Made by a program: the position numbers and the translations under genes. From positions 14,939 to 78,938 of the forward strand of contig JAWLHX010000001.1 of the NCBI GenBank assembly GCA_041690105.1: a stretch of DNA of 64,000 nt, given 5' to 3'. Shown in pieces: positions 16,940 through 19,900 of this stretch (its first letter is position 1; each line of letters starts with the position of its first letter). Source of the DNA: Phycisphaerae bacterium. Lineage in GTDB: Bacteria; Planctomycetota; Phycisphaerae; FEN-1346; JAACEH01. The notes under the pieces are model-generated. The model did no database searches. It saw only the letters and a list, made by a program, of their open reading frames with translations, and was not told where the DNA came from.

Positions 16940-19900
16940 CTAGGGCTGAGCTCCAACCGTTTTCCATGAGCCATCGTCTTGCTGCTGACAGCAATGGCGC
17001 CTGAATTCTGCCATTACCATTCTCGTATCATCCATTGCCTTCTGGTGCCGACTGTTGTCAAGCAAGGGGTTATCCAAAGCTGTGGGACCACGATTCTTCT
17101 CATCTTCAATTCGCCACACTCTCCTCTTCCACTGTGGTGCCACACTATCCATCATAAACTGCTTAAAACCAATTTTGTCGTTGATGCCTTCATGCAGTCC
17201 TATTCGTCTTTCGCCATCCTGATCCTGAAAAGCCTTCGGATGGTCTTTCCATTTCCACTGGCCACGTGGATCACCGGGGTTATCAATAGCACCAACGTTT
17301 GGATCAAAGAACTCAGGGTGGAAGCCTCTCTCGGGCCACCCTTCGTGTGAATAGCTATCCTGAAGGACATGCAATGATGTGCCTAGTCTATCTGCGTCGC
17401 ATGACTCAACAGCATCATACACCATCTGGACGACAACATCGTTGAGAAAGCCAGGATAAACGTAATTTGATGCCGAATGATCGCCAAAGATCAGGTACCA
17501 CATGTCAGGTTGTCGTGCGCCAGGAAAATGTAGTTGGTAATCACGGCCAAAGAGTCCACTGGTCAGAACACTGACGATGGCCTGAGTCGAGGCTTGATGT
17601 AGCCAATCATCAGCGCCTTGATCTGCTGCCGCAATTCTGTCAGCGTCCTGCAGCCTTAGCCCACTGATAGGATTGCTGGCGATATCTGCCGTTAGTTGCT
17701 TGTGCGTGTACTCCTCGTACAAGCCAAGAGGGTCAACAGCGTGTATTGGCTGTCCAAGAACCGTCTGGTAATAAGACCCGGCAGTATCTCTTATGCAGGG
17801 ATCCCTTGTCACCCACCTTCCCAGCAGCGGGTCATAATACCTGTGCCGCACATGGTATCGCCCGGTTTCCGGATCGAACCGGTAGCCGCAGTAGAGGATT
17901 TCGTTGTCGTAGGCGGAGGTGTTGCCGACACGGGGGGTCCAGTTGCCGTCGAGCACCGTCACCTGGCCGTAGGCATCATACAGGTACCGCTCGTCTACCT
18001 GGTAGGAGCCGTTGACCATCGTGACAAGCGACGTCACGTTGTAGTTGGCGTCCTGAAGGTAGATCAGCCGCCGGCTGCCGCTGGAATCGAGGCAGTCGCC
18101 GTCGCCGTTGGTATCCTCCTCGCGGGAGATCAGGGAGTCGATATAGCGGGAGTCCCAGACGTACTGGCAGCCCCAGTAGTTGGGATCGGGCGTGGAGGGC
18201 AGATCCACCACCGCAGAGCGGGCCGCATCCAGAGAGGCCAGACCCTTCAGCCGCCGCTCTTCCAGCACCTGCCAGTTCTCGTTGTAGTAATAGTCGGTAC
18301 GCGTCCAGGTGACCTGCTGCCCGTCATCGTGGCGGACAAGCTTCGCTGTTCGCCGCAACAGCCCGTCGTAATGATACTCGGCCACCGGAACAAGAGTCTC
18401 GCCGATCTCCTCCTCAACGCGGACAAGGCGGTTCCAGGCATCATAGACCAGCGTCTGGCCGTTCTGGGGACTGACTGTTTTGGGCCCTTGAGTCATGTTG
18501 CCGGCGGCATCGTAGACCGGAACAACCCAGCTGCCACCGGTGATGGAGGTGACTTCGTTGACCTCGTTGTGACCGCGCTGCTGCTGGAGGTCCCAACCGA
18601 GGCCGTCATCGTCCTGCTGGAATTCCGTCCAATTGCCAAGATGATCCAGTGTCCAGTCGTGAGCACGGTTTTTACCGGTGACTCCCGTAAAGTTCGGCGA
18701 AGTGCCGACCAGCGTGCCGCGCTCGGCCGAGACAAGACGGTTGAGGCGGTCATAGGTATAGAACTCACTCTTGTCGCCCTGGCCGGAAACAGCCACCTGT
18801 CGCCAGAAACGGTTGCCGGCGTTGTCATAGCCGTAGTTGAAAGAATCGTATGAACCGCTGCCACTCCAGCGGACCTGAACTGTGCGGTTAAAGTCATCCC
18901 AGGCTGGATAGTTGCCACCCCACCCGATGTCGCCGTGGACGTACGTATTGGTCTGCGTGTCGTAACCGTAGAAGAAATATACTGGCGTGCCGTAGCCAAC
19001 CTGGCCAACAAGGTCGCCAGCGGTATAGTTGGCATACTGGAAGCTGCTCATCGGACGAATGATCTTCTCCAGGCGGTCGTTGCCCGGCAGACTGCTGTTA
19101 TAGATATAGCGGACGCTGCGGGCGGTGGCCGGCCCAGGATAAACAACGTCTTTAAGGCGCGAGTACCGGGCGCTGTTGCTGGCGCTTGCCAATGGGCCAT
19201 CGCCGGCTGTTTCGTAAAGGTACCCCACCTTGGGCGAACTGTTCACGTCCACCGCTCCAATGTGCTCCTGTCGGCTCTCGGAGAGAGCACCCCAGTCATC
19301 ATTATTGTAGGTGTAGTGTATCTGGTCAACTATGTTGCCAGCGGTGGCGGCATTGTAGCTGGTGACATGAGTTGTGCGGCCGAAGTCGTCGTAGGACATT
19401 TCGATCCTCAGCACGCGGTCATCAACCGAAGCGGGGAAGGACGGATCATCAAGTCCGTTGGTGGAATCGGTGATCAGGCGGCCGGCGCTGTCATAACCGT
19501 AATTGTGCACTACCTGCAGCTGATCGGTAACCTTGGTTCTGCGACCCACATAATCGTAGTTGAAAGAAACGTGGTCGTGTGAGCTCAAGGGATCCAACGA
19601 CCAGATTTTTGTCCCGGGATCCTGGATGAAGGTGCTTTGCGAATCCGGATAGATGACGGCTGTAGGCAGCGAGGCATCGTGCCCGCAGTCGTAGACGTAG
19701 CGGGTTTTCTGATCCACGGTGGTGGTCCCGTCAATGACATTGACGGCAATCAGCGTGGCCAGGCGTCCTTTGGAATCGTACTCATACCTGGTGGTACGAT
19801 TGATATTCGCGGGGTCCGTTCCCTTGTCTTCGACGACCTGCGCAGTACGACCAAGAGCATCATACGTGGCTTCTGTGACCCGGCCGACGTTGTCTATTGA

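Follow-up and report, generated by a model that had tools for sequence, protein, structure and literature searches.

The RHS gene and its C-terminal tip

We analysed a 64,000-nucleotide stretch of a Phycisphaerae bacterium (assembly GCA_041690105.1, contig JAWLHX010000001.1, positions 14,939 to 78,938), hereafter the window, and describe an open reading frame (ORF) that encodes a polymorphic toxin of the RHS/YD-repeat kind, together with the C-terminal tip of that protein and the lipoprotein gene directly downstream. A preliminary description made from the sequence alone had likened the tip to the zinc-dependent phospholipase C (PLC) of Bacillus, and this proposal is followed up here. The parts of the locus on which the argument rests are, in window coordinates:

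16940..24007, minus strand: ORF of the RHS/YD-repeat polymorphic toxin, 2355 aa when read at its longest, with matches to PF05593, TIGR01643 and TIGR03696
23813..23917, minus strand: predicted Sec signal peptide, MKHLHADSAKSLSAAILLTLAAVIVMSVAAGTVNA cut before QG, read by eye from the sequence
17720..17980, minus strand: end of the RHS repeat-associated core (aspartyl autoprotease plug), closing with VDPLGL at 17720-17737
16943..17719, minus strand: C-terminal toxin tip, 259 aa, a DUF6765/Het-C-like predicted metallo-phosphoesterase domain
15737..16921, minus strand: lipoprotein-like protein of 394 aa (MRMFVLVSLLSFIFGC...), which begins 18 nt beyond the RHS stop and is the candidate for immunity

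Five stretches of the RHS protein match the Pfam model PF05593 (RHS_repeat, E 3.1e-8), the NCBIfam model TIGR01643 matches as well, and TIGR03696 covers aa 2010-2096 with 55.7 bits against a cutoff of 32.5, ending at the ...HAVDPLGL that had already been taken for the terminus of the RHS core. YD/RHS repeats, a core with DPxGL and a variable tip next to a candidate immunity gene are the marks of a polymorphic toxin and are all found here. As such the protein is of a known kind. With T6SS-delivered and Sec-dependent RHS toxins (Rhs1-Tre23 of P. laumondii, TseI of A. dhakensis and WapA of B. subtilis) it has in common a YD-repeat shell, a DPxGL core terminus directly after which autoproteolysis is predicted, an exchangeable C-terminal toxin and, next to it downstream, a gene for a candidate immunity protein. 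The window protein differs from these in its Sec signal, in an adjoining type II secretion system (T2SS) cluster, in the lack of PAAR, VgrG or type VI secretion system (T6SS) context, and in its Phycisphaerae-like lineage.

The upstream ORF stops at 23974 and AAGGAA, a Shine-Dalgarno-like sequence, precedes an ATG at 23917; therefore the real RHS product is probably 2325 aa long, starting at this ATG with a Sec signal peptide. Secretion through Sec, proposed earlier, is consistent with the sequence and plausible from the start at 23917, as judged by eye. The tip occupies the 259 aa after DPLGL (Tyr2097 to Pro2355) rather than the approximately 290 aa first attributed to it, since the range quoted then had taken in 30 core residues and the stop codon. 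Its GC content is 0.50, and at third codon positions (GC3) 0.486 as compared to 0.639 in the rest of the RHS gene, which is consistent with a replacement of the tip within this gene. By GC3 the tip looks foreign and the presumed immunity gene does not.

A toxin family around DUF6765

A word-indexed search with the tip retrieved a single homologue, P0001, 51% identical and deriving from a Phycisphaerae metagenome-assembled genome (MAG), while an exhaustive HMMER scan of 1.84 billion representatives with a profile of the two sequences yielded 17 further members. Nearly all members of the resulting 19-sequence family are RHS C-termini or short cassettes. P0018, found at E 2.3e-4 with the two-sequence profile, is a secreted standalone protein and a bona fide member of DUF6765 (PF20551), with 47.9 bits where 26.6 is the gathering score, and P0004 (29.1 bits) also lies above this cutoff. 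The DUF6765 model matches 12 of the 19 members; VWA7_N (PF25107) matches 10, weakly and on the HxxxDxxxH motif, and reaches 17.6 bits on the window tip, below its cutoff. A second search, in which the family alignment served as query, added about ten standalone PF20551 proteins of 440 aa, and the precomputed annotation of P0036 combines RHS-core domains with PF20551.

The likeness to DUF6765 extends over an N-terminal aromatic-x4-His (W-E-x-D-V-H in that family), ADQ-x-D, HFP, and LH-x-LQDS[YW]SH followed by a further His. The RHS-linked subfamily departs from it in having HFPGAG, Cys107 and a C-terminal CxC, and in ending without the approximately 230 aa that the standalone proteins of 440 aa have in addition at the C-terminus; an insertion of about 75 aa sets apart the window tip and P0001. 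The tip very probably belongs to a DUF6765/Het-C-like branch. It had no match in NCBIfam, a literature search found no paper mentioning DUF6765, and the tip family itself is not known to have been studied. When one genome per species was scanned (185,579 species), the family appeared at only 13 loci, in Phycisphaerae, Planctomycetaceae, Gemmataceae, Acidobacteria/Holophagae, beta- and gammaproteobacteria and Rokubacteria; its distribution, sparse but broad, fits a mobile toxin module. A search of species-representative genomes for an exact match at the DNA level found none.

The sister group Het-C has been considered before: Zhang, de Souza, Anantharaman, Iyer and Aravind (2012; PMC3482391) defined Tox-HET-C by an HxxxDxxxH signature, predicted from borderline profile-profile matches that Het-C has the fold and active site of Zn-PLC and S1-P1 nucleases, described an animal version in a surface protein of the major histocompatibility complex (MHC) class III region, and listed Tox-HET-C with T2SS, T6SS and PVC trafficking, with no RHS association. 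Tox-HET-C (PF07217) and VWA7_N resemble the tip in being all-alpha, in the HxxxDxxxH with an extra His and Asp/Glu, and in a polymorphic-toxin-like use. Of the full Tox-HET-C signature (H, [DE], HxD, HxxxDxxxH, Nxx[DE], [ST]G), the tip has HxxxDxxxH, the N-terminal His and an acidic residue, with HFPG in the place of HxD; Nxx[DE] is not evident and PF07217 does not match. The animal protein is VWA7, which fits the VWA7_N matches in our family; VWA7_N is the animal branch of Het-C.

Conserved residues of the tip

Residues are numbered here from the first residue of the tip, and conservation refers to the 19-sequence family alignment. The following elements were distinguished:

17702..17719, minus strand: Tyr1 to His6 (YEEYTH), predicted new N-terminus and first His ligand
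17609..17623, minus strand: DQGAD motif with D33 and D37, the latter nearly invariant
17516..17530, minus strand: HFPGA motif with the invariant H64, which hhalign pairs with H69 of PLC, in SHFYD
17345..17371, minus strand: H117-x3-D121-x3-H125 (HVLQDSYSH), then H134 (GFHP), in 19/19 members; site of the DUF6765 and VWA7_N matches
17084..17314, minus strand: lineage-specific insertion spanning tip aa 136-212 (about 75 aa), which the window protein shares with P0001 alone
17066..17080, minus strand: ALDNP motif (family consensus VDDP) with the nearly invariant D216, candidate ninth ligand
16988..16999, minus strand: RHCC with C243 and C244, conserved with C107 in the RHS-linked subfamily

Seven residues are invariant (H64, H117, D121, S122, H125, G127 and H134) and five more reach at least 90% conservation (D37, C107, G113, P129 and D216). 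Position 1 is Y, W or F and position 6 is His in the complete family members, with the exception of P0009, which has a 4-residue insertion. C107 and the C-terminal CxC are kept in the RHS-linked subfamily and absent from standalone DUF6765 proteins, and a disulfide of C243/C244 with C107 is possible.

This pattern sorts the three strings on which the comparison with Bacillus PLC had been built, all of which are present: THKQLT at 17690-17707, LHVLQDSYSHEGW at 17336-17374 and PRGQWKWKDHP at 17237-17269. The second, with H117-x3-D121-x3-H125, is the real core of the family and lies far beyond chance, because it is invariant in all 19 representatives. THKQLT contains the conserved His6, its remaining residues not being conserved in the tip family, and the pairing with EDKHKEG of PLC has to be given up: the hhalign counterpart of His6 is the zinc ligand H14, not H7, and H7 is variable within the PLC family. 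PRGQWKWKDHP (tip aa 151-161) falls in the insertion, absent outside P0001 and predicted with a local confidence (pLDDT) below 50; its likeness to GYWNWKGTNP is best regarded as a coincidence. As to other metal-dependent folds, readings of the tip as a zincin (HExxH) or as an HD domain were rejected, neither motif being conserved in the family.

A proposed free N-terminus next to a predicted cleavage site

The complete RHS-linked members amount to about 27 distinct sequences; in every one of them an aromatic residue follows DPxG[LRT] directly, with no linker, and in standalone DUF6765 proteins Trp follows directly on an AxA-type signal-peptidase site. Many short members (P0001, P0004, P0006, P0010, P0012, P0014, P0017, P0022, P0023, P0037, and L001 745-1791) have no YD shell and consist of their own signal peptide (...ADASA, cut before YYHP...), no more of an RHS core than its last 50-90 residues (RDPxGY...DPxGL), and the tip. 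Such proteins may represent orphan cassettes or else a 'mini-RHS' whose core end acts as a portable self-cleaving propeptide.

Cleavage at this position has a precedent: Rhs1 of P. laumondii is cut directly after DPLGL, with D1338 as catalytic residue and the toxin starting from A1343 (PMC8636562). In S1 nuclease the first Trp binds the zinc cluster through its main chain at the N-terminus (PMC5201275). Precursors of Bacillus PLC have 38 residues ahead of Trp1. With the self-cleavage site abutting the first residue of the domain in every RHS-linked member, the new N-terminus suggests itself as a metal ligand, and we infer that the domain requires a free N-terminus at residue 1, supplied by RHS autoproteolysis. 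A further, tentative proposal, for which we would put the odds somewhat short of even, is that the free alpha-amino group itself is the ligand and that three proteolytic devices are placed against residue 1, namely the aspartyl autoprotease of the full-shell RHS proteins, the signal peptide with a core end of about 60 aa in the mini-RHS, and a plain signal-peptidase site, so that cleavage would complete the active site.

Two betaproteobacterial standalone DUF6765-like proteins (L012 3521-5008 and L013 3077-4255) continue after the signal peptide with A/E-G-D-V-H where others have W-E-x-D-V-H. An aromatic side chain at residue 1 is thus not universal, an exception to the rule that is nevertheless compatible with ligation by the main chain.

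The downstream lipoprotein and the site of action

The 394-aa lipoprotein-like protein has no match in Pfam, NCBIfam or the PDB. Its sequence is consistent with the lipoprotein named in the preliminary description, and the pairing with the tip recurs in another genome, where the P0001 cassette, from another Phycisphaerae MAG, is followed after 20 nt by a 407-aa lipoprotein-like gene homologous to the window ORF over its full length (22% identity, E 8e-28). At ten or more other loci the gene directly downstream of the tip encodes a lipoprotein-like or membrane protein; these genes belong to unrelated sequence families, and their products nearly always have a hydrophobic signal followed by G/A/S-Cys, or are membrane proteins. 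In five loci the spacing to the tip is tight, from overlap to 28 nt. The metagenomic contig L005 (1780-6596) carries two 100% identical tandem pairs of a 469-aa toxin, made of an RHS end and a DUF6765-like tip, and a 323-aa lipoprotein; either the module was duplicated recently or the tandem arose in the assembly.

The downstream lipoprotein is probably the antidote of the tip. It might instead be an accessory or export factor, with the tip aimed at eukaryotes or acting extracellularly, and the absence of a recognisable domain, the large size for an immunity protein and the GC3 of 0.60, unlike the low 0.49 of the tip, would suit such a role. We consider this unlikely in view of the compact two-gene module, conserved even in the orphan cassette of another genome, of the tight spacing, of the tandem toxin-lipoprotein pairs, and of the downstream genes being diverse in sequence yet consistently envelope-located, as expected of immunity genes. 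Orphan tip/immunity cassettes were looked for downstream of the lipoprotein, where the ORF at 14764-15348 does not look protein-like.

The location of the immunity candidates in the envelope and the conserved C107 and CxC suggest an action outside the cytoplasm, and a phospholipid or other envelope phosphoester would be favoured over nucleic acid as the substrate.

Relationship to zinc phospholipases C and S1-P1 nucleases

Taken together, we read the locus as a Sec-exported RHS shell with a DUF6765/Het-C-related tip, a phosphoesterase site of the Zn-PLC/S1-P1 type and a lipoprotein immunity, and assign to this reading a probability of roughly 0.6. The tip would most likely be mostly alpha-helical, with its invariant residues building a multinuclear zinc site of this type. 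The reference sequences used for phosphatidylcholine-preferring PLC (PC-PLC) and P1 nuclease are identical to PDB entries 1ah7 and 1ak0. The nine zinc ligands of PC-PLC are W1, H14, D55, H69, H118, D122, H128, H142 and E146; the position of D55 is confirmed by entry 1p5x, a D55N mutant. At permissive threshold, hhalign places H6, H64, H117, D121, H125 and H134 of the tip colinearly on H14, H69, H118, D122, H128 and H142 of PLC, and shuffling PLC 200 times gave six identical matches at invariant positions in 2 cases. Considered with the shuffling outcome as a whole, the six-ligand alignment is suggestive, not decisive.

The Zn-PLC group (B. cereus PC-PLC 1ah7, Listeria PlcB, the N-domain of C. 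perfringens alpha-toxin) shares with the tip the HF dipeptide at the third ligand; its active enzyme begins at an aromatic residue exposed by proteolysis, as is predicted for the tip. The tip differs from it in having His6 rather than His14 and Tyr for Trp1, in the unclear equivalents of D55 and E146, and in being delivered by an RHS shell, while PLC is a free exoenzyme.

A structure prediction from two sequences was unusable (pLDDT 33), and the 19-sequence alignment was used in its place. The resulting AlphaFold2 model is largely helical, with a pLDDT of 72.9 and a predicted template-modelling score (pTM) of 0.74; residues 1-10 reach pLDDT 95 and the insertion (tip aa 136-212) 35-45. In a Foldseek search of 350,542 PDB chains, ranks 1-5 were B. 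cereus PC-PLC, ranks 6, 7 and 9 the S1/P1 nuclease SmNuc1, and ranks 10 and 13 Listeria PLC; a search of viral structures found nothing. The likeness to PLC noted at the outset has some support in these nearest PDB neighbours, with every score below significance.

Several results weigh against this reading. The Foldseek matches to PLC and S1-P1 proteins have E 0.34-7.6, template-modelling (TM) scores of 0.27-0.34 and a root-mean-square deviation of about 13 A, none of them significant. The tip itself scores 17.0 bits (E 0.0046) with DUF6765, under the gathering score of 26.6, and is therefore a homologous outlier of this family rather than a curated member. The Pfam models PF00882, PF02265 and PF07217 do not match the tip (for PF00882, with a limit of E 1), the family profile retrieved no PDB sequence up to E 10, and hhalign of the family against PC-PLC or a 17-sequence PLC profile stays at E 0.075-0.14, being robust on one helix only (LG-x-LH-x-L-x-D...H). 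In the shuffling control, the score of the real PLC is reached in 11 of the 200 cases. No alignment brings D37 onto D55 of PLC, and the counterpart of the ninth ligand, E146, is uncertain, with D216 as a candidate.

A single-sequence phmmer search of the tip against the PDB returned noise only; deepening the PLC profile to 17 sequences brought no better significance (E 0.077 over 25 columns), and the standalone DUF6765 subfamily used as a bridge to PLC gave the same marginal value of E 0.075. The global mode of hhalign produced meaningless end-to-end alignments. The profile comparison suggested in the preliminary description, carried out with hhalign, was marginal for PLC and gave nothing for S1-P1, where no alignment to a mini-profile was found (E 0.67-0.83).

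That these scores are all sub-threshold could mean that the tip is a metal-binding toxin of unrelated fold, its likeness to PLC and S1-P1 being convergent or an artefact of matching histidines and amphipathic helices. The real hhalign score is attained in 5.5% of the shuffled PLC trials, and both the H-x3-D-x3-H spacing and HFPGAG are unlike the two reference families. Such an explanation seems improbable to us, given that 10 of the top 13 among the 350,542 PDB chains belong to one small superfamily and represent three different proteins, that six invariant residues are colinear with six known zinc ligands, that the rule of a processed N-terminus is common to the family, PLC and S1-P1, and that an independent earlier prediction exists for the sister Het-C group. 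A place of the DUF6765/Het-C-like branch within the PLC/S1-P1 superfamily is likely, if unproven.

Membership of the tip in PF00882 (Zn_dep_PLPC) proper, as implied by the original pairing of motifs, is in our judgement very unlikely and largely refuted because of the Pfam and hhalign results. Five PC-PLC entries do head the Foldseek list, and one of the 19 family members, P0019, matches PF00882 weakly (E 0.044-0.067). The model does not match the tip itself, the profile-profile alignment at E of about 0.08 covers a single helix of 25 columns, the tip has H-x3-D-x3-H where PLC has H-x3-D-x5-H, and the first and third of the quoted motifs are without a conserved PLC counterpart.

A more specific alternative is that the tip is an S1-P1-like nuclease or nucleotidase acting on nucleic acids, in the target cytoplasm or extracellularly, and not a phospholipase. 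The S1-P1 nucleases (P1 1ak0, S1 5fb9, TBN1, SmNuc1 8qjl), whose zinc cluster is coordinated by main-chain atoms at the N-terminus together with side chains of His and Asp (PMC5201275), share the N-terminal aromatic-1 and His-6 with the tip, in exactly the spacing of P1 and S1 nuclease (WGxxGH), where PLC has His14. SmNuc1 receives the highest TM-scores (0.33-0.34), and Zhang et al. (2012) left it open whether Het-C is a nuclease or a phospholipase. Against it stand the absence of any profile similarity, with no hhalign alignment to S1-P1 and no PF02265 match in any of the 19 members, the conserved cysteines, which suggest an oxidising compartment, and the immunity candidates, which are lipoproteins or membrane proteins rather than cytoplasmic and argue against a nucleic-acid target. 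We hold the nuclease to be a doubtful alternative.

For the envelope-directed phosphoesterase that we prefer, a four-step course can be proposed. The RHS aspartyl autoprotease would cut after DPLGL, as the motif and the published Rhs1 data suggest. Tyr1 would then become the new N-terminus, its main-chain amine and carbonyl completing the metal site together with His6 on the model of Trp1 in PLC and S1/P1 nucleases. Judging from the location of the immunity candidates and the conserved cysteines, the freed enzyme would cleave a phosphoester in the envelope of the target bacterium, most probably phospholipid head groups, and, as the gene pairing suggests, the lipoprotein encoded directly downstream would neutralise it in the envelope of the producer. 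The phospholipase activity is a supposition, and so is the contact-dependent delivery put forward in the preliminary description.

Genomic surroundings

The following features lie next to the RHS operon or in its neighbourhood:

23974..26538, minus strand: secreted all-helical repeat protein of 854 aa, without Pfam match, directly upstream of the RHS gene
2224-14191, plus strand: complete-looking T2SS operon with GspD, GspE, GspF, pseudopilins, a GspL-like protein and a tetratricopeptide repeat (TPR) protein, convergent with the RHS operon
2224-3687 and 3573-4601, plus strand: GspD secretin split in two overlapping ORFs (Secretin_N/N0 and Secretin, respectively)

The gene of the 854-aa protein is probably co-transcribed with the RHS gene, and a role of its product as adaptor or chaperone is possible. 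In agreement with the preliminary description, which saw no T6SS context, inspection of the window's large ORFs revealed no T6SS gene. The T2SS cluster could be the route by which the Sec-dependent RHS protein is exported across the outer membrane, proximity being the sole link between the two. The split of GspD could reflect a frameshift, a pseudogene or a sequencing error.

Farther from the RHS operon the window contains a defence island (28768-37569), with a Schlafen AlbA_2/HATPase_c_4 protein at 28768-30489 and two large fused restriction-modification proteins of the MmeI/Eco57I type at 30578-33673 (plus strand) and 34375-37569 (minus strand). It also contains a prophage (38185-63686), with tape-measure (40781-43147), capsid (49712-51787), lambda-type portal (51723-53501) and terminase (60632-62917) genes. 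Embedded in the prophage is a 1456-aa SIR2-TPR-PIN protein of the PIN-TPR-GreABC type (54969-59339), possibly a phage-borne defence gene.

Significance

RHS proteins with swappable toxin tips are common, and one more tip would be unsurprising in itself. If the proposed reading is right, DUF6765, a family without function or literature, gains a specific function that can be tested, that of a metallo-phosphoesterase toxin aimed at the envelope, and the Het-C/VWA7 branch of the PLC/S1-P1 superfamily would be extended into RHS systems. This extension would bear on fungal heterokaryon incompatibility and on a functionally uncharacterised protein of the vertebrate MHC class III region.

The locus also documents Sec-dependent, T6SS-independent RHS toxins in Planctomycetota, a phylum in which, to our knowledge, interbacterial antagonism is almost unstudied. 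That RHS autoproteolysis might create a catalytic ligand is an idea that can be tested simply, by comparing the native with an extended N-terminus. If true, RHS self-cleavage would be a built-in zymogen switch and not mere release, analogous to the removal of the propeptide in Listeria PlcB, and the end of the RHS core could serve by itself, with no shell, as a portable self-cleaving propeptide.

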